A DNA stretch of 32,000 bases from Pseudanabaenales cyanobacterium (GTDB taxonomy: Bacteria; Cyanobacteriota; Cyanobacteriia; Pseudanabaenales; Pseudanabaenaceae): contig JBBRMK010000008.1 in assembly GCA_038230875.1 (NCBI GenBank), positions 18,815-50,814 on the forward strand, written 5' to 3'. The position numbers were made by a program, and so were the translations under genes. The first letter of the stretch is position 1. Every line of letters starts with the position of its first letter. Below, piece by piece: positions 15,926 through 25,136 of this stretch. Below the pieces are notes generated by a model. That model saw nothing but the letters and a program-made list of their open reading frames with translations. It did not search any database and was not told the origin of the DNA.

Positions 15926-16082
15926 TTTATGATAGTTGACAATCTAAAAAAGAAACTTTAATGAAAGAAAATATTTATGATTCAGTCCCTACTTTTATTG
16001 ATCGCGTTGTCCCTGATAAGTTTGACCTATCGGTGGTTGGATTGTATTTTTAGGCGTATTGGTCATTATGTACACCCTCAAA

Positions 16083-16187
16083 TACAGCAGATTGCGAACA
16101 AAGAACGACAATATTTTCGTAAAAGCCCAGCTTTGCGGGGCTTTTACAAAAATCTGGGTTTGGTTTATTCTCAATCTGCAGTAAGAA
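16083..16187. repeat. MITE-like element, family 2, copy c (diverged)
   Basis: tacagcagattgcgaacaaag...aaaagcccagctttgcggggcttttacaaaaatctgggtttggtttattctcaatctgcagtaa aligns with 16583-16688. Confidence 0.7.
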
Positions 16188-16318
16188 GACTAATCGAGCA
16201 TTTACTCAAACGTTGTTATGTTCCATTACCAGAATGCTATGTCAGTTGGCAAAGAGAAATTAGAGCTTTTTATAACGATATCAAAGATATTTTAGAAGAT
16301 GCGCCTAGTTTAAAAACT

Positions 16319-16466
16319 GATGTTACGTGGAGCGAAAATTACCCCTCATCCCCCAACCCCTTCTCCCGCAGGAGAAGGGGAGCAAAACCCAAATTATTTT
16401 CTTGTTCCCCTCTCCTGCGGGAGAAGGGGTTGGGGGTGAGGGCTTTAGAAACTTCCACGTAACATC
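16319..16466. repeat. MITE-like element, family 1, copy b (inverted relative to copy a)
   Basis: The termini gatgttacgtgga / tccacgtaacatc are perfectly complementary. The interior acccctcatcccccaaccccttctcccgcaggagaagggg ... cccctctcctgcgggagaaggggttgggggtgagggct matches the reverse complement of 12335-12485. Confidence 0.85.
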
Positions 16467-16582: not shown

Positions 16583-16688
16583 TTACAGCAGATTGAGAAC
16601 AAACCCACCACTAGATTTTTTATAAAAGCCCCGCGAAGCGGGGCTTTTATAAAAAATCTGGGTTTGGTTTGTTCGGGATTTGCTGTAA
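16583..16688. repeat. MITE-like element, family 2, copy b
   Basis: ttacagcagattgagaacaaacccaccactagattttttataaaagccccgcgaagcggggcttttataaaaaatctgggtttggtttgttcgggatttgctgtaa is a near-perfect hairpin. Confidence 0.85.
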
Positions 16689-16734
16689 TAACATCTTAAA
16701 TCGTAATTTTTTGGGAAATTAATCAGCCCTAAGG

Positions 16735-16810: not shown

Positions 16811-17105
16811 GGTACTTTTATTGTTAGAGATCACCTAAGGATCGCATTGTTGGTTTTGGTGAAGATTTTGTTGTGATTAAAATCAGTGTAAAAAACAACA
16901 ATATTCAAAAGAGAAAGAGTGCGGAGTATTGATTGGTTTGTCAGATTGAGTCACCTGTCTGCGTGCTTTCGTTAACGATTTACTTGAAGAGCGATCGCGA
17001 TGCTATTAGTGCATCGGAAGTCTTGGATATTTTGTCTTCTATCGCTTATGGTGAATAGGCGATCGCTAGCTTAAAAAATTACTTTCCTAGTTCGTTATTT
17101 TGTAA

Positions 17106-17227
17106 TGTTATGATCAATCTGATCCAAAGAAGTTTACGGTTGAGGCGATCGCGTAGAACAAGTTAGTGCAAGAAAAGTAAATGCTAATGGTGATGCTATT
17201 TTTAAGATCGCTCAAAGAGTTAATTAG
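17106..17227 (+). pseudogene. Internal-deletion remnant of the 153-aa tail-motif protein gene (module copy 1)
   Basis: The remnant keeps the upstream leader (taatgttatgat) and the stretch acggttgaggcgatcgc, which matches 19442-19456 of the intact gene. It then jumps to gtagaacaagttagtgcaagaaaagtaaatgctaatggtgatgctatttttaagatcgctcaaagagttaattag, which matches 19745-19819. The junction lies in a GCGATCGC site. The retained tail reads ARKVNANGDAIFKIAQRVN*. Confidence 0.7.
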
Positions 17228-17251
17228 ATTGCAAGGCTGGAGGTTAGAGAT

Positions 17252-17683
17252 ATGGAAGAGTTGTTAGAGCTTAAGGAATTGCTCATTGGCGGGAATATTT
17301 CTGATGCTTTGCTGTTGGTAGAGGAGATGACGGAGATGAGTAAGGATGACAAACTGAATAAGATTTTCAGTTTCAGTATTATCGTTCTACTGCATTTAAT
17401 TAAGCAATCTGCTGAAAAGCGATCAACGCGATCATGGGAAATGTCGATCTCTAACTCTTTAAAACAAATTCAGCGCTCCAATAAACGGCGTAAGGCAGGT
17501 GGGAACTACCTAATCGAAGCAGAGATAAGAGAAACTCTTGAGGATGCTTATGAAACTGCTTTAAATCAAGCTTCTTTGGAGGCGTTTGAAGGCAGATATG
17601 AGGTGTCGGCAATCGCGGCAATGGTCGATCACTCGGCAATTATTGACAAGGCGATCGCTCTAATTTCTAGTGGTGAAGCGTGA
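17252..17683 (+). CDS. DUF29-like helical protein, paralogue 1
   Basis: 143 aa and intact. The segment LVEEMTEMSKDDKLNKI..LLHLIKQSAEKRSTRSWEMSI..IQRSNKRR parallels the DUF29 pattern (LIEEIE.MGRSE...LL.HLLKW.....RS.SW...I...R.EI). The first 38 aa are nearly identical to paralogues 2 and 3. Confidence 0.6.
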   Translation: MEELLELKELLIGGNISDALLLVEEMTEMSKDDKLNKIFSFSIIVLLHLIKQSAEKRSTRSWEMSISNSLKQIQRSNKRRKAGGNYLIEAEIRETLEDAYETALNQASLEAFEGRYEVSAIAAMVDHSAIIDKAIALISSGEA

Positions 17684-17857
17684 GCTAGTCATAGATTACC
17701 CTATACTCGCGATGATATTAGTACATCGGAAATCTTGGATATTTTGGCTTCTATTTCTGATGATGAGTAGGCGATCACTATGTTTAGAAAATCGCTTTTC
17801 TGTTTTGTTATTTTGTAATGTTATGATTGTTTCCATTAAAGTTATAAAAATACGGCT

Positions 17858-18319
17858 ATGGCAGATCCTTTAACGGCTGAGGCGTTGGTGGTATTGGCGG
17901 CTTAGAAGTTTGTTGAGTCAAGTGCTGGAGAACTCGCTAAGAAATTTACGACTGAGGCGATCGCAAAGATTCCTGACCTATGACAGCAAATCAAAAATAA
18001 GTTACAGGGTAGATCTGCCAAGGTTGATGAGGCTTTGGTTAAGTTGGAATCGGGCGATCAAAGTGCCATTGATACAATTACCAAAAATCTCGATGTGGTG
18101 TTGGATGAAGATGAAACTTTTGCGTCACTGTTGCAAAAATTGGCTAAGGAAATTAATACAGGGAAAATTAGTCAAGTTGGTTTAAATGGTATTACTGCGA
18201 ATCGAGTAGCGGCGGAAATTGTACAAGATGCTAAGGGTGATCGCGTAGAGAAAATTGGTGCGAGGGATGTAAAAGCGACTGGCGATACGGTTTTTAAAAT
18301 CAAGCAAAATGTAGATTAG
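17858..18319 (+). pseudogene. Tail-motif small protein gene, module copy 2, with two in-frame stops
   Basis: The frame is collinear with 19358-19819 over its full length, but it has TAG at 17903-17905 and TGA at 17981-17983 (TGG in copy 3). The C-terminal tail is intact: IGARDVKATGDTVFKIKQNVD*. Confidence 0.8.
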
Positions 18320-18336: not shown

Positions 18337-18768
18337 ATGGAAGAGTTATTAGAACTTAGAGAACTGCTGATTGGTGGCAATATTTCTGATGCTTTGCTGT
18401 TGGTGGAGGAGATGACGGAAATGAGCAAGGATGACAAACTAAATAAGATCTCTAGTTTTGCGAAGATTCTCCTTCTCCATTTAATTAAGCGTCAAGCCGA
18501 AGAAAAGACAACAAGATCGTGGGATGCTTCGATTGATAATGCGGTGTATGAGATTCAGAAAACTAATCGCAGACGGAAGGCTGGAGGTGCTTATCTTTCG
18601 GCTGAAGAGTTGAGGGAGGCGGTGGCGGATGCCTATAGGGTTGCCATGTCTGGCGCGGCGGCAGAAGCTTTTGGCGGTTGCTATACGGTCACGCAACTAG
18701 CGGCAATGGTCGATCGCTCTGCAATTATTGACAAAGCGATCGCTTTAGTTTTTGGCGGAAATGCGTGA
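18337..18768 (+). CDS. DUF29-like helical protein, paralogue 2
   Basis: 143 aa and intact, with the same architecture as 17252-17683 and 19844-20275. Confidence 0.6.
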   Translation: MEELLELRELLIGGNISDALLLVEEMTEMSKDDKLNKISSFAKILLLHLIKRQAEEKTTRSWDASIDNAVYEIQKTNRRRKAGGAYLSAEELREAVADAYRVAMSGAAAEAFGGCYTVTQLAAMVDRSAIIDKAIALVFGGNA

Positions 18769-18827
18769 ACTAACCACAGACTCCCTCATCCATCTAATAA
18801 CATTGAGACTATACTCATCGCGAAGAT

Positions 18828-19319: not shown

Positions 19320-19348
19320 TTATGATTTAATTTCATCCAAGTTATAAA
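19320..19348 (+). promoter_or_regulatory. Putative sigma70-type promoter of the module (short or absent leader)
   Basis: TTATGA (19320-19325), a 17-nt spacer, then TATAAA (19343-19348), about 10 nt before the GTG start. The same taatgttatgat...gttataaaaata block precedes copy 2 (17813-17852), and its first part precedes copy 1 (17103). Confidence 0.3.
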
Positions 19349-19357
19349 AATATAGTT

Positions 19358-19819
19358 GTGTCAGATCCCATAACGGCTTCAATATTGGTAGGTTTGGCTG
19401 TTCAAAAGTTTGTGGAGTCAAGCGCGGGAGAACTCGCTAAGAAATTTACGACTGAGGCGATCGCAAAGATTCCTGAGCTATGGCAACAAATCAAAAATAA
19501 GTTGCAGGGCAAATCTTCCAAGGTTGATGAGGCTTTGGTGAAGTTGGAAGCGGGCGATCGCTCTGGTATTGATACTGTGACAAAAAATCTGGATGTGGTG
19601 TTGGATGAGGATGAGGCTTTTGCGAAACTGGTGCAAAAGTTGGCGCAGGAAATCAATTCAGGGCAAATTTTACAGGTAGGTTTAGAGGGAATAACGGCGA
19701 ATCGGGTCGCGGCGGATATTGTGCAGGATGCTAAAGGCGATCGCGTAAAGCAGATTGGTGCAAGGGATGTCAATGCGACTGGTGATGCTGTTTTTAAAGT
19801 TAAACAAACCAAAGATTAG
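19358..19819 (+). CDS. Small helical protein with hydrophobic N-terminal helix and C-terminal strand-like motif (candidate Bell/HeLo-like effector); module copy 3, intact
   Basis: 153 aa with a GTG start where copy 2 has ATG. The N-terminus is SDPITASILVGLAVQKFVESSAGELAKKF, the middle is helical and acidic, and the tail is GDRVKQIGARDVNATGDAVFKVKQTKD. No enzymatic motif is present. A 136-aa antisense ORF covers it but has no support. Confidence 0.65.
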   Translation: MSDPITASILVGLAVQKFVESSAGELAKKFTTEAIAKIPELWQQIKNKLQGKSSKVDEALVKLEAGDRSGIDTVTKNLDVVLDEDEAFAKLVQKLAQEINSGQILQVGLEGITANRVAADIVQDAKGDRVKQIGARDVNATGDAVFKVKQTKD

Positions 19820-19843
19820 GCTGCAAAGCTAGAGGTCGAAGCT

Positions 19844-20275
19844 ATGGAAGAGTTATTAGAATTACGGACATTGCTGATTGGTGGCAATGTCTCCGATGCT
19901 TTGTTATTGGTGGAGGAGATGACTGAGATGAGTAAGGATGACAAGCTGAATAAAATTTATAGCTTTGCAAAAGTCTTATTACTTCATCTCATCAAACAAC
20001 AAGCGGAAAATCGCACTACAAGGTCATGGGATCTGTCAATCAAAAATGCGGTAAGGGAAATTCAGCGAACCAATCAACGACGTAAGGCTAAAGGAAATTA
20101 TTGCGAACCTTCAGAACTACGAGAGACCTTGAAAGATGCCTATGACATTGCTTTAGATTTGGCTGCTACTGAGGCGTTTGGTGGACATTATGAATCGGCG
20201 GAGTTGGGTGCGATGGTCGATCGCGATCGCATAATTCAAAAGGCGATCGCTTTAATTTCTGGAGATAATGTGTGA
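19844..20275 (+). CDS. DUF29-like helical protein, paralogue 3, translationally coupled to the NB-ARC gene
   Basis: 143 aa. Its stop TGA (20273-20275) overlaps the GTG start (20272-20274) of the next gene within GTGTGA. Confidence 0.6.
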   Translation: MEELLELRTLLIGGNVSDALLLVEEMTEMSKDDKLNKIYSFAKVLLLHLIKQQAENRTTRSWDLSIKNAVREIQRTNQRRKAKGNYCEPSELRETLKDAYDIALDLAATEAFGGHYESAELGAMVDRDRIIQKAIALISGDNV

Positions 20276-22254
20276 GCGAACAGCAAATTAATCAAACAGG
20301 ATTTAAAGATGTCTCGGTTGGTGGTAATCTCACTGCCAATCTTGATCAAAGCGTCAATAAAACGGTTATTCATCAAGCTCCAAAATCCTATCAGCCAATT
20401 CCTGATAACCTGCGGCAGGGTTCCAAAAACTTTGTGGGACGAGAGGAGGAACTTGCGGATATTCATACAAAACTGCAAGAGGGTCAGGGTGTGATCGTCT
20501 GTGCGGTGGAGGGGATGGGCGGTGTCGGTAAGACGGAACTGGCGCTGCAATATGCAAATCGCTATCAACAGGAATATGTGGCGCGGTATTGGTTGTCCTT
20601 GCGGGAGATGGGATTAGCTCAAGCATTGGTAACAATGGCTAGTCCTTATCTTGATTTACCCGAATCGATGCAGTCGGCAAGTCTAGAGGAACAAGCAGCA
20701 TGGTGTTGGCAAAACTGGTTGCCTGAGGCTGACAAGTTATTAGTGATTCTCGATGATGTGCCGAGGGCGGAGAGTATTCCTGATCTGGCGATGCCCATCG
20801 ATCCGCGTGTACGGGTATTGGTGACAACGCGAGAACGGGAATTGAATGTGGGTTTTGAGTCTGTGCCTCTGGATGTGCTGTCAGAGGAGAAGTCTCTGGA
20901 ACTGTTAAGAAAAATAGTTGGCGTGGCAAAGGTTGAGAAGGAACTCGTCACGGTTAAGGAGATTTGCAACACTTTGGGCTATTTGCCCTTGGGTATCGAG
21001 TTAATCGGTGAATATCTGAGCAAAAATCGTCATCTGACTTTTGCCAAGTTACAAGAAAAGTTACATCTTGCCGATGAGTCAATTTCACGCGATCGCAAAG
21101 GTAAGTTTTATGGCTATCGTGGTGTGGAGGCAGCAATCCAACTGAGTTGGGATGACATCAATACTGGCTCTCAGGGAGTGGCGATGTTGTTGGGGCTGTT
21201 TGCGCCTGTGGAGATTTTGTGGGAGTTGGTGGCAGCAATTGGAGCAAAAGCCAAAATTACGGAAGATGAACTGAATGAGGCAAGAGGACAGTTAGACAGT
21301 TTGCATTTGATGCAACCTGTTGATGATGAATGCAACTTTTATAAGATTCATACGGTAGTCCGCGAGTTCTTTCGTGCCAAGCTATTAAAAGCTGAAGAGA
21401 ATCATCAGTTTCGGCAAGCATTTGTGACTGGTTTACTGACAATTGCTAAAATGATACCCTCATCGCCAACGAGAGTTTTGATTGCATCGGTAGCTCCTGC
21501 TATTCCTCATTTGGATATGCTGAGTCGCGAGATGCTGGATGATATTCCTAACCCTGATGAAAATAACAATTTGGTTTGGGCATTTTTAGGAACTGCGAAA
21601 TTTTATGAAGGACAAGGACTATACGCATTAGCCGAAGATTCTTCTCAAAGATGTTTGACTTCTGTTCGAGAACTGTTAGGAGATCGCCATCCCATTGTCG
21701 CCATTAGTATCAACAACCTCGCAGCGCTGTACGATTTGCAAGGGAGATATGCAGAAGCAGAACCACTCTATCAAGAGGCGATGCAGTTGATGCGAGAACT
21801 GTTAGGAGATCGCCATCCCGATGTCGCCACCAGTCTCAACAACCTCGCAGGGTTGTACGAGTCTCAAGGGAGATATGCAGAAGCAGAACCACTGTATCAA
21901 CAAGCCCTCGCTTTGAGGCAAGAACTGTTAGGCGATCGCCATCCCGATGTCGCCATTAGTTTCAACAACCTCGCATTGCTATACCATTTGCAAGAGAGAT
22001 ATACAGAAGCCGAGCCACTCTATCAACAAGCCCTCGCTTTGAGGCAAGAACTATTAGGCAATCGCCATCCCTCTGTCGCTGGAAGTTTGTTTAATCTAGC
22101 GGGGCTTTATTACCAGATGCAAAGATATTCCGAAGCGATGATTTTGATTCAGAGAGCGATTCAGATTTATCAGCAAACCCTCGGCAACGATCATCCAAAT
22201 ACCAAAGCCGCTATGAGTTGGCTACAACCGATCAAGGAAAAAGTAGAAAGGTAA
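20272..22254 (+). CDS. STAND NTPase: short N-terminal motif + NB-ARC domain + TPR (kinesin-light-chain-type) repeats
   Basis: 660 aa. Walker A is GMGGVGKT (20512-20535), Walker B is LLVILDDV, then VLVTTRE and the GLPL-like GYLPLGIEL. The C-terminus has 5-6 TPRs of the LGDRHPDVATSLNNLAGLYESQGRYAEAEPLYQQAL type. Only ~55 aa precede the NTPase domain. Confidence 0.85.
   Translation: MSEQQINQTGFKDVSVGGNLTANLDQSVNKTVIHQAPKSYQPIPDNLRQGSKNFVGREEELADIHTKLQEGQGVIVCAVEGMGGVGKTELALQYANRYQQEYVARYWLSLREMGLAQALVTMASPYLDLPESMQSASLEEQAAWCWQNWLPEADKLLVILDDVPRAESIPDLAMPIDPRVRVLVTTRERELNVGFESVPLDVLSEEKSLELLRKIVGVAKVEKELVTVKEICNTLGYLPLGIELIGEYLSKNRHLTFAKLQEKLHLADESISRDRKGKFYGYRGVEAAIQLSWDDINTGSQGVAMLLGLFAPVEILWELVAAIGAKAKITEDELNEARGQLDSLHLMQPVDDECNFYKIHTVVREFFRAKLLKAEENHQFRQAFVTGLLTIAKMIPSSPTRVLIASVAPAIPHLDMLSREMLDDIPNPDENNNLVWAFLGTAKFYEGQGLYALAEDSSQRCLTSVRELLGDRHPIVAISINNLAALYDLQGRYAEAEPLYQEAMQLMRELLGDRHPDVATSLNNLAGLYESQGRYAEAEPLYQQALALRQELLGDRHPDVAISFNNLALLYHLQERYTEAEPLYQQALALRQELLGNRHPSVAGSLFNLAGLYYQMQRYSEAMILIQRAIQIYQQTLGNDHPNTKAAMSWLQPIKEKVER
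21670..22173 (+). repeat. Four tandem 126-bp (42-aa) TPR-coding units with high nucleotide identity
   Basis: Unit starts (gaactgttagg/gaactattagg) are at 21670, 21796, 21922 and 22048. Long identical runs such as gatcgccatcccgatgtcgcc and agatatgcagaagcagaaccact are shared between units. Confidence 0.9.
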
Positions 22255-22267
22255 AAGTTAAAAGGAA

Positions 22268-22681
22268 ATGGCAAAAGATTTATTTCATGATGCAGTCAAA
22301 AATGCCCTAATCAAAGATGGTTGGCAGATTACTGATGACCCATTCTTCTTGAAAGTTGGAGGTGTTGAACTTTATATCGATCTAGGAGCCGAAAAACTCA
22401 TTGCCGCCGAACGCAATAATGAAAAAATCGCCGTAGAGATCAAAAGTTTTATCAATCCTTCATCGCTAACGGACTTTCATCTAGCGATCGGACAATTTCT
22501 TAACTATCGAGTAGCATTAAAAGCAAGAGAGCCAGAACGCAAACTATTTTTAGCAGTTCCAAATACTGCCTACGCCAGCTTTTTCCAAAAAGAGTTTGCC
22601 TATATGGTTATTGCTGAATATCAATTGGAAATTTTTGTTTACGATATCGAAAATGAGGTAATTGTCACATGGAAAATCTAG
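22268..22681 (+). CDS. xisH: XisH family protein (fdxN-element excision controlling factor-like)
   Basis: MAKDLFHDAVKNALIKDGWQITDDP...IAAERNNEKIAVEIKSF closely follows the Anabaena XisH pattern. It starts 13 nt after the NB-ARC gene stop. Confidence 0.85.
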   Translation: MAKDLFHDAVKNALIKDGWQITDDPFFLKVGGVELYIDLGAEKLIAAERNNEKIAVEIKSFINPSSLTDFHLAIGQFLNYRVALKAREPERKLFLAVPNTAYASFFQKEFAYMVIAEYQLEIFVYDIENEVIVTWKI

Positions 22682-23013
22682 AAAAAATTGCTAAATATCG
22701 CACCATCATCAAAGAGATTTTGGGACACTATGCCTCCTATAAACCCTCTCATGGCGAGATCGAGATCCAGTTTCTATCGGATACAGAACATGATCACTAT
22801 CAAGTATTAGGTGTGGGATGGGATCAAAAAACACGAGTTTACGGTTGTTCCATGCACTTAGATATTAAAAATGGCAAAATTTGGATTCAAATCAACAATA
22901 CCGAACTTGATATTGGTCAAGCCTTAGTCGAAAAGGGTGTGCCAAAAGAAGATATTGTCATCGGTTTTCAGCCCGTTTATATTCGCCAAGTTTCAGGCTA
23001 TGCGATCGCCTAA
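22669..23013 (+). CDS. xisI: XisI family protein, copy 1
   Basis: 114 aa with YGCSMHLDIKNGKIWIQINNTELDIGQALVEKGVPKEDIVIGF. It overlaps xisH by 13 nt. Confidence 0.85.
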   Translation: MENLEKIAKYRTIIKEILGHYASYKPSHGEIEIQFLSDTEHDHYQVLGVGWDQKTRVYGCSMHLDIKNGKIWIQINNTELDIGQALVEKGVPKEDIVIGFQPVYIRQVSGYAIA

Positions 23014-24791: not shown

Positions 24792-25136
24792 ATGGAAAAT
24801 CTAGAAAAAATCGCCAAATATCGCACCATCATCAAAGAGATTTTGGGACACTATGCCTCCTACAAACCATCTCATGGCGAGATCGAGATCCAGTTTCTAT
24901 CAGATACAGAACACGATCACTATCAAGTATTAGGCGTGGGATGGGATCAAAAAACACGAGTTTACGGTTGTTCCATGCACTTAGATATTAAAAATGGCAA
25001 AATTTGGATTCAAATCAACAATACCGAACTTGATATTGGTCAAGCCTTAGTCGAAAAAGGTGTACCAAAAGAAGATATTGTCATCGGTTTTCAGCCCGTT
25101 TATATTCGCCAAGTTTCTGGCTATGCGATCGCCTAA
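24792..25136 (+). CDS. xisI: XisI family protein, copy 2 (protein identical to copy 1)
   Basis: The 114-aa translation is identical to copy 1. There are 10 nucleotide differences, all synonymous third-position changes. Confidence 0.85.
   Translation: MENLEKIAKYRTIIKEILGHYASYKPSHGEIEIQFLSDTEHDHYQVLGVGWDQKTRVYGCSMHLDIKNGKIWIQINNTELDIGQALVEKGVPKEDIVIGFQPVYIRQVSGYAIA

Follow-up and report, generated by a model that had tools for sequence, protein, structure and literature searches.

The window, a 32,000-nt stretch of contig JBBRMK010000008.1 from the genome assembly GCA_038230875.1 of a Pseudanabaenales cyanobacterium (positions 18,815 to 50,814 of the forward strand), carries three closely spaced genes that encode a predicted Bell-domain effector, a protein of the DUF29 family and an ATPase resembling NOD-like receptors (NLR). 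A preliminary description, made from the letters of this DNA, had listed the three genes, and their order, coordinates and strand are all as placed there; what it missed is the tandem array that holds them as its third and last unit. The features of this unit, in window positions, are the following.

19358 to 19819, + strand: Bell-domain effector gene, 153 amino acids (aa); open reading frame (ORF) with a GTG start, residues 1-101 predicted as a helical Bell domain, two BASS4-like pseudo-repeats in the C-terminal tail
19664 to 19726, + strand: tail repeat r1, residues 103-123, QILQVGLEGITANRVAADIVQ; part of the tail profile, with a sub-threshold, in-register match to the BASS4 profile and beta strands predicted at a low predicted local distance difference test score (pLDDT)
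19742 to 19807, + strand: tail repeat r2, residues 129-150, RVKQIGARDVNATGDAVFKVKQ; part of the tail profile, with its best local alignment to NLR residues 5-27
19844 to 20275, + strand: DUF29 gene copy D3, 143 aa; 24 nt 3' of the Bell gene, match to Pfam PF01724 at 34.6 bits
20270 to 20275, + strand: GTGTGA junction, read in the sequence, a 4-nt overlap of the DUF29 stop (TGA, 20273-20275) and the NLR start (GTG, 20272-20274)
20272 to 22254, + strand: NB-ARC/TPR NLR-like ATPase, 660 aa, without an N-terminal effector domain; Pfam matches to NB-ARC and TPR_12
20281 to 20349, + strand: BASS4-type amyloid signaling motif, NLR residues 4-26, QQINQTGFKDVSVGGNLTANLDQ; BASS4 profile match

The GTG start of the 153-aa ORF is supported because its homologs and the upstream pseudogene copy begin with M-[SA]-D-P at that codon. 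The 143-aa protein that starts after the 24-nt gap had been called DUF29-like, and it matches Pfam DUF29 well above the cut-off of 22.5 bits. The overlap of the NLR GTG with the DUF29 TGA, also pointed out before, is present in the sequence, and the two genes are probably translationally coupled through it. A terminator scan of the + strand found no terminator-like site between 16660 and 22800.

The effector protein

The homologs of the 153-aa protein (n = 196) are all cyanobacterial, and none has a Pfam domain. When aligned, they show strong conservation over residues 1-105, and their last 40-50 residues belong to unrelated, swappable types. Over residues 1-104, the window protein is 81% identical to a protein of Pseudanabaena sp. 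SR411 (locus L010; L-numbers denote the genomic loci compared), which corresponds to a BASS9 entry (OYQ62169.1/OYQ62143.1) in Table S2 of Dyrka et al. 2020 (bioRxiv 10.1101/2020.01.06.895854), with the exact strings at residues 110-132 and 51-73 and the same strain, SR411. Because of this identity to a listed BASS9 Bell protein, the N-terminal domain is a Bell domain by the classification of those authors, and we assign the 153-aa protein, from its sequence relationships, as a Bell-domain effector with a swappable tail.

The AlphaFold2 (AF2) model agrees with the helical protein with a strand-like tail that had been described, showing six helices over residues 7-101 (pLDDT 80-88 over residues 30-100) and a tail of beta strands at low confidence, which do not in themselves indicate amyloid. 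By the definition of Dyrka et al. 2020, Bell domains have in common with Hell, HeLo, MLKL and RPW8 domains a conserved hydrophobic helix at the N terminus. In the window protein, the hydrophobic helix ITASILVGLAV (helix 7-19 of the model) is conserved across the homolog family. Comparison of the protein with the PDB by single sequence and by profile returned nothing meaningful, and scans of NCBIfam, PADLOC and PHROGs returned no informative family.

The NLR and its N-terminal motif

In the 660-aa protein, Pfam places an NB-ARC domain (PF00931) at residues 58-294 (69.7 bits) and five TPR_12 units at approximately residues 430-650 (254.6 bits), and both a Walker A (GMGGVGKT) and a Walker B motif (LLVILDDV) can be read from the translation. 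No domain of Pfam, NCBIfam or PADLOC was found in residues 1-57, in line with the earlier claim that this NLR carries no effector of its own. What these residues do contain was recognized with a profile hidden Markov model (HMM) trained on the four BASS4 pairs that Dyrka et al. list in their Table S2: the window NLR matched it over residues 4-21 with 21 bits (E 2.4e-5), and the best of 1750 decoys reached 9.2. By this profile match, we assign the NLR N terminus as a BASS4 motif. A wholly new BASS family for the window motif, whose strings are absent from the Dyrka tables, was rejected on the NLR side by the same match.

Two observations concern NLR architecture. Within the TPR region, three 126-nt (42-aa) units at 21669-22109 share 78-85% nucleotide identity; such closely similar repeats have been noted in the sensor domains of NLRs from fungi and bacteria and would be consistent with a rapid shuffling of repeats. 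In two other loci, the NLRs carry tandem N-terminal motifs (L039:4625-5075 and L040:6162-6610), a BASS4-type KQTGLEHVNVGGDADINVSQ followed by a BASS5-type EPNKLAEKIGIAVSGG, a layout with which a single NLR might activate two distinct Bell effectors.

Pairing of the effector tail with the NLR N terminus

Since the pairwise alignment of tail and N terminus in the window was by itself too weak for a claim, profile and co-variation tests were used. Across the 24 loci found with the 153-aa Bell protein as the query, the tail type and the N terminus of the downstream NB-ARC protein vary together. The L009 pair, for example, combines NSTMTQNNSDNARGLQVKVDGVTNYIGEIH with NNTMNQNNSGNAQGVQIEVKGGTAYIGVNH, and the L023 pair combines QNNYGGTNYQN...NTNFIGG with QQNNYGGMNNQ...NTNFIAE. 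In 10 loci, the total score of cognate tails and N termini was equalled by only 1 of 20,000 random re-pairings. An HMM made from 47 tails of the same type as that of the window (type A), with the window protein itself excluded, placed 13 real NLR N termini, the window's included, above all 620 shuffled decoys; the window NLR scored 8.8 bits and the best decoy 5.9.

The string of the window Bell-tail motif is absent from the Dyrka tables. We file the tail as BASS4-related but diverged, rather than as BASS4, because the profile matches of r1 and r2 are sub-threshold. The effector tail would thus be a diverged, duplicated BASS4-like sequence (r1 plus r2) facing an NLR whose own motif is assigned to BASS4. 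The logic that the preliminary description had proposed, namely that of fungal HET-S/NWD2 and of bacterial Bell/BASS-NLR pairs, is well supported by the 81% identity of the N-terminal domain, the BASS4 match of the NLR and the co-variation of tails and N termini. Judged by these sequence comparisons, the core of the locus is a Bell/BASS-NLR pair and so of a kind already known.

The trio as the last unit of a tandem array

The Bell and DUF29 genes at 19358-20275 form the third and last unit of a tandem array, which is apparent from the sequence and its repeat families. The preceding units consist of the following features.

17144 to 17227, + strand: remnant of Bell copy 1, the last 27 codons of the tail, translated as GDRVEQVSARKVNANGDAIFKIAQRVN and a stop; repeat family D7
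17252 to 17683, + strand: DUF29 copy D1, 143 aa, intact; Pfam DUF29 at 33.8 bits
17858 to 18319, + strand: pseudogene of Bell (copy 2), which keeps the frame of copy 3 throughout but has a TAG at 17903 and a TGA at 17981; 83% nucleotide repeat D4
18337 to 18768, + strand: DUF29 copy D2, 143 aa, intact; Pfam DUF29 at 33.3 bits
18828 to 19214, + strand: truncated DUF1016/YhcG-type gene between units 2 and 3, N-terminal domain only; Pfam DUF1016_N at 116 bits, PADLOC PDC-S02

Short 5' fragments of the DUF1016-type gene are repeated before the other units, at 16995-17078 and 17707-17790 (repeat family D6). The three DUF29 copies are far apart at synonymous sites: D2 and D3 have a synonymous divergence (dS) of 2.8 and a ratio of nonsynonymous to synonymous divergence (dN/dS) of 0.09, and D1 differs from both with dS of 1.6-1.8 and dN/dS of 0.14-0.16; against its orthologs, D3 has a dN/dS of ∼0.15. 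D1, D2 and D3 are anciently diverged paralogs, all under purifying selection (dN/dS 0.09-0.16). The dS between the dead Bell copy 2 and the live copy 3 is only 0.58. The locus is described best as a recombining tandem array in an island rich in toxin-antitoxin genes, in which the sole intact Bell gene is the last copy and three DUF29 copies have been kept.

Bell copy 1 (window 17100-17230) apparently arose by deletions whose ends met at HIP1 sites (GCGATCGC), which are abundant in the window. At its junction, ...ACGGTTGAGGCGATCGC/GTAGAA..., a HIP1 site near codon 34 of the intact gene is fused to one near codon 128.

Decay of this extent raises the question of whether the whole locus is a nonfunctional relic, with unit 3 merely the latest survivor and its tail no longer matching its NLR. 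Two nonsense codons interrupt Bell copy 2, only 27 codons are left of copy 1 and the DUF1016 gene is truncated; NLR remnants and stubs are also common beside DUF29 elsewhere (a 110-aa remnant in L025/L044, 'VSEQQ' stubs in L064/L084), the near-identical Bell plus DUF29 cassette of L002 precedes an NLR with a poorly matching N terminus (score 21), and the window tail stays below significance with the BASS4 profile. Set against this, unit 3 has full-length Bell, DUF29 and NLR genes, with the Walker A and B motifs and the TPRs intact, Bell orthologs evolve with a dN/dS of 0.10-0.22, the same intact trio and junction are found in L004, L007 and L051/52, and the tail profile still places the window NLR N terminus above all decoys. 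We consider a relic highly improbable.

The DUF29 protein

DUF29 (PF01724) is a cyanobacteria-rich Pfam family with no assigned function. All three 143-aa proteins of the window lie above its gathering threshold and are all-helical, the AF2 model of D3 having seven helices (pLDDT 88.7). A relative in the PDB was found neither by single sequence nor by profile nor by Foldseek fold search (none below E 0.5). Scans of NCBIfam, PADLOC and PHROGs gave no informative family, the weak secondary Pfam matches of 22 members were noise, and a whole-word literature search for DUF29 returned incidental mention only. We considered a toxin-antitoxin identity because HicAB and MNT/HepT fill the same slot elsewhere (see below). 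As a type II toxin-antitoxin gene, DUF29 was rejected: it occurs singly or in homotypic tandem, and it matches no toxin-antitoxin or defense family in Pfam, NCBIfam, PADLOC or PHROGs.

Linkage of DUF29 to Bell/NLR operons

The preliminary description had taken a DUF29-like gene between effector and NLR to lie outside the described architecture, and DUF29 is indeed absent from the text of Dyrka et al. 2020. The arrangement nevertheless recurs, with the trio being found in other genomes at L002, L004, L007 and L051/52. In all of the closest Bell homologs (L001 to L007), DUF29 follows 24 nt downstream, and wherever the contig allows, the NLR comes next across the same GTGTGA junction. Close DUF29 relatives also adjoin NLRs and Bell genes of other families, and the order of the genes differs among them. 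When 80 metagenomic loci were sampled by DUF29 similarity alone, at least 38 had an adjacent Bell and/or NB-ARC/P-loop gene, invariably on the same strand, and a third Bell family, missed by the Bell queries, adds further DUF29-linked loci. The DUF29-linked Bell proteins thus belong to three families, with BASS3, BASS4, BASS5 and type-A tails. At direct DUF29-to-NLR junctions, the -4 stop/start overlap is present in 9 of 10 cases, across NLRs with 26-39% NB-ARC identity, and NLR stubs such as 'VSEQQ...' remain after several DUF29 genes whose NLR was deleted. Because Pseudanabaenales genomes have ∼10 NLRs each (Table S1 of Dyrka et al., bioRxiv 10.1101/2020.01.06.895854), we roughly estimate the chance of DUF29/NLR adjacency at ∼1%. 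DUF29 is not a chance neighbor of Bell/NLR genes.

Some pairs in the tables of Dyrka et al. are 433-476 bp apart with skipped accession numbers (bioRxiv 10.1101/2020.01.06.895854). In the published BASS4 pair of Cuspidothrix, one gene lies in a gap of 433 bp and the tail is identical to the Bell tail of L025, where the 431-bp gap between the pair is filled by DUF29. From this match, the DUF29 arrangement was probably in published data already, unremarked.

Much of this could be explained if DUF29 were a true third component of the system, either as a stoichiometric brake or chaperone coupled to the NLR, which would keep the BASS motifs or the NB-ARC from spontaneous firing, or as an adaptor or sensor subunit shared by Bell/NLR pairs. 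Besides the co-oriented adjacency in the 80 sampled loci, the spread over three Bell families and their four tail types and the overlap kept across NLR clades, such a role would fit the purifying selection on DUF29 and the Cuspidothrix gap, by which the arrangement may extend to Nostocales.

A further arrangement was observed directly downstream of DUF29. A P-loop ATPase of 429-502 aa (weak AAA_16/ATPase_2) followed by a large unannotated protein recurs there, with or without HicB, and the DUF29 link may reach other STAND-like systems. The loci are as follows.

L033:4002-7429: P-loop ATPase and large protein after DUF29
L001:8620-10128: the same arrangement
L072/L073/L089/L096: the same arrangement

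DUF29 relative to the Bell/NLR pair

Several properties of DUF29 speak against a third component. Many Bell/NLR pairs have no DUF29 in cis, including close paralogs (L009, L010, L014, L015, L020 and L023), and other cassettes can take its place, namely HicB/HicA in L008 and MNT/HepT in L012 (Crocosphaera). Strain lw0831 combines both situations, with a DUF29-containing pair (L004) and a pair with HicB/HicA instead (L008). With such cassettes in the same slot, the enrichment of DUF29 may come from a site that is permissive for insertions or from a common island. The position of DUF29 is not fixed either, since it follows the Bell gene in the window and precedes it in L036, L039, L040 and L043, and about half of the DUF29 copies are solitary among housekeeping genes. 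In the window, D1, D2 and D3 have been conserved beside dead Bell copies.

DUF29 also shows no sign of having diversified with its partners (Mantel r = 0.38, p = 0.065). DUF29 proteins that are 92-96% identical stand beside NB-ARCs of only 35-37% identity: those of L002 and L004 are 92% identical, with NB-ARCs 35% identical, and those of L051 and L055 are 96% identical, with Bell genes from different families. Weighing both sides, we regard a true third component as possible but rather unlikely. What became of the three-component variant that had been proposed is thus mixed: DUF29 is recurrent and linked, but a core role is not established, given its varying position, the solitary half of its copies, the lack of co-diversification and the DUF29-less paralogs.

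Probably, then, the cassette array of the window is a recombining one that holds a pair of a Bell protein and a BASS4-type NLR, and DUF29 is a co-operonic but portable gene, under selection of its own and outside the signal relay. A number of results weigh against this interpretation. On the side of the pair, the beta strands of the Bell tail are modeled with a pLDDT of only 50-58, the alignment of r2 with NLR residues 5-27 is weak (score 33, reached by 41 of 2000 shuffles), and the window tail scores 5.8 bits with the BASS4 profile, within the decoy range. A Foldseek search of the PDB with the Bell model found no HeLo, MLKL or Bab-like fold (best E 0.65), although this search neither backs nor counters a HeLo-like fold. 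On the side of DUF29, the ∼50-fold enrichment at NLR loci and the strict co-orientation exceed what is expected of a mere passenger, the stop/start overlap is kept across several NLR clades and three Bell families, and DUF29 acting in trans would also account for pairs that lack it in cis.

A more specific proposal is that the DUF29 proteins of this subfamily serve the Bell/BASS-NLR amyloid signalosomes of cyanobacteria as a dedicated accessory subunit, for example, as a brake that the kept stop/start overlap would supply one-for-one with the NLR and that the several Bell/NLR pairs of a genome would share in trans. We put this forward as a tentative idea that is more likely wrong than right; if true, it would be the first function for DUF29 and the first three-component amyloid-signaling immune module.

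Two observations on DUF29 and its slot may be added. In Cronbergia sp. UHCC 0137 (L038:3501-4814), three tandem DUF29 genes with 3-nt spacers stand without a Bell or NLR gene in the vicinity; compared by eye, they match the D3, D2 and D1 subtypes of the window one to one and may travel or act as a set. The triple without an NLR also counts among the points against a third component. The slot between Bell (or DUF29) and the NLR repeatedly contains toxin-antitoxin cassettes (HicB/HicA, MNT/HepT, a RelB-like gene), with an IS630 transposase in L040, and looks like a hotspot for the insertion of small cassettes. The slot insertions are located as follows.

L008:7503-7986
L012:7477-8116
L001:7905-8398
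L040:4413-5175
L066/L067

Candidate UGA readthrough in related loci

Six related loci, spread over four genera, have a Bell-BASS ORF that ends with TGA and is continued in frame by an NB-ARC ORF lacking its own BASS motif. These readthrough-type loci are the following.

L017:7445-7520, L018 (Pseudanabaena minima) and L019: Pseudanabaena
L024:7439-7514: Myxacorys
L013:7451-7526: Gomphosphaeria
L021:4255-4330: Acaryochloris plasmid pREB4

The base after the TGA is C in 5 of the 6 loci, and in L024, L013 and L021 the frame from the TGA to the P-loop has no ATG, GTG or TTG. The nucleotides that follow the TGA are conserved and include a 5-bp hairpin with two compensatory pairs. This pattern suggests, as a candidate, programmed UGA readthrough that would yield both a Bell-BASS-NLR fusion and the free effector from one mRNA.

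Surroundings of the array

The best matches of the window proteins are in Pseudanabaena genomes, at 85-92% identity; together with the abundant HIP1 sites, they assign the window to a Pseudanabaena-like cyanobacterium. Genes of the island nearby include XisH/XisI, a Gp49-like gene with a downstream partner ORF, DUF2281/ParE, TumE, PIN, DUF2442, a HEPN-type NTase_sub_bind gene and Uma2; this richness in toxin-antitoxin and related genes fits a defense or variable region. Upstream of the array lies one further ORF with similarity to DUF29.

15977 to 16462, + strand: 161-aa ORF with a partial, weak DUF29 match; Pfam DUF29 at 35.1 bits over residues 66-125

Behind this ORF, the terminator scan found a strong terminator-like hairpin at 16613-16659. 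The hairpin has a 20-bp stem (AAAAGCCCCGCGAAGCGGGGCTTTT), and part of its sequence recurs 504 nt upstream inside the ORF (16137-16187, 16613-16691). On the other side of the array, the XisI genes at 22669-23013 and 24792-25136 encode identical 114-aa proteins within a repeat of at least 300 nt that is 97% identical; the former comes after XisH, with overlapping ends, and the latter comes after the DUF2281/ParE pair instead.

Discussion

By analogy with HET-S/NWD2 and with Bab/Agp of E. coli, from which the individual steps are drawn, the core of the locus would act as a Bell/BASS-NLR switch with two parts, for regulated cell death or abortive infection. The TPR repeats would sense a cue and so bring about oligomerization of the NB-ARC domain, and the N-terminal BASS4 segments clustered in this way could form an amyloid nucleus. 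This nucleus would template the tail of the Bell protein, and the hydrophobic N-terminal helix of the latter, once freed, might damage the membrane. DUF29 would not be a link of this relay; it seems to lodge preferentially in Bell/NLR operons, where it is presumably co-transcribed and translationally coupled to the NLR, and it would be at most a generic modulator rather than a partner-specific one.

Templating of a cell-death effector by the amyloid motif of an NLR is known in fungi and, since 2024, in one antiphage system of E. coli. Cyanobacterial Bell/BASS pairs are still predictions, to which the window adds a well-supported pair with a two-repeat tail. In addition, DUF29, a large orphan cyanobacterial family, is strongly and directionally linked to Bell/NLR operons and often, it seems, translationally coupled to the NLR. 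We thus regard the recurrent, probably coupled DUF29 as a previously unremarked variant architecture of a known system. If DUF29 modulates the switch, it would add a new regulatory layer to amyloid signaling; if it is a passenger, the slot between Bell and NLR would be a recurrent landing site (for DUF29, HicAB and MNT/HepT) that drives module shuffling and the diversification of immune loci. Either way, the spacing filters of published surveys would miss or misread DUF29-separated pairs.

The closest known relatives are the Bell/BASS-NLR pairs that Dyrka et al. 2020 (bioRxiv 10.1101/2020.01.06.895854) described from filamentous bacteria, in particular BASS4 and the Pseudanabaena BASS9 pair. 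With these the window shares an N-terminal domain of ∼100 aa that is helical and whose first helix is hydrophobic, a cyanobacterial host and a short C-terminal motif repeated at the N terminus of a collinear, effector-less NB-ARC/TPR protein. Among the collinear pairs of that survey, 57% are ≤10 bp apart (bioRxiv 10.1101/2020.01.06.895854). In the window, unlike in those pairs, the Bell tail is a diverged two-repeat version, DUF29 sits between the genes and overlaps the NLR start, and the unit belongs to a tandem array with decayed Bell copies.

HET-S/NWD2 of Podospora anserina likewise has a separate small executioner with an N-terminal membrane-targeting helix (predicted in the window), encoded in a neighboring gene, and in both systems two pseudo-repeats in the effector tail stand opposite one at the NLR N terminus. 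Unlike in the fungal system, there is no detectable sequence or fold relation to HeLo, the receptor is of the NB-ARC/TPR rather than the NACHT/WD type and the genes form a bacterial operon with a gene overlap. The likeness would be one of mechanism only and not of family membership.

In Bab/Agp of E. coli (Ibarlosa et al. 2024, bioRxiv 10.1101/2024.11.07.622273), a small Bell-related effector similarly shares its C-terminal amyloid motif with the N terminus of the adjacent sensor, and that system provides the experimental proof that bacteria defend themselves against phages by cell death through this logic (bioRxiv 10.1101/2024.11.07.622273). Unlike the window, it has a BASS11 motif and two genes only, with no DUF29, and it resides in a prophage hotspot of a proteobacterium. 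Compared with Pfam PF01724 at large, finally, the subfamily of the window (>2600 clusters) is linked here to Bell/NLR operons, and this appears to be its first genomic context.

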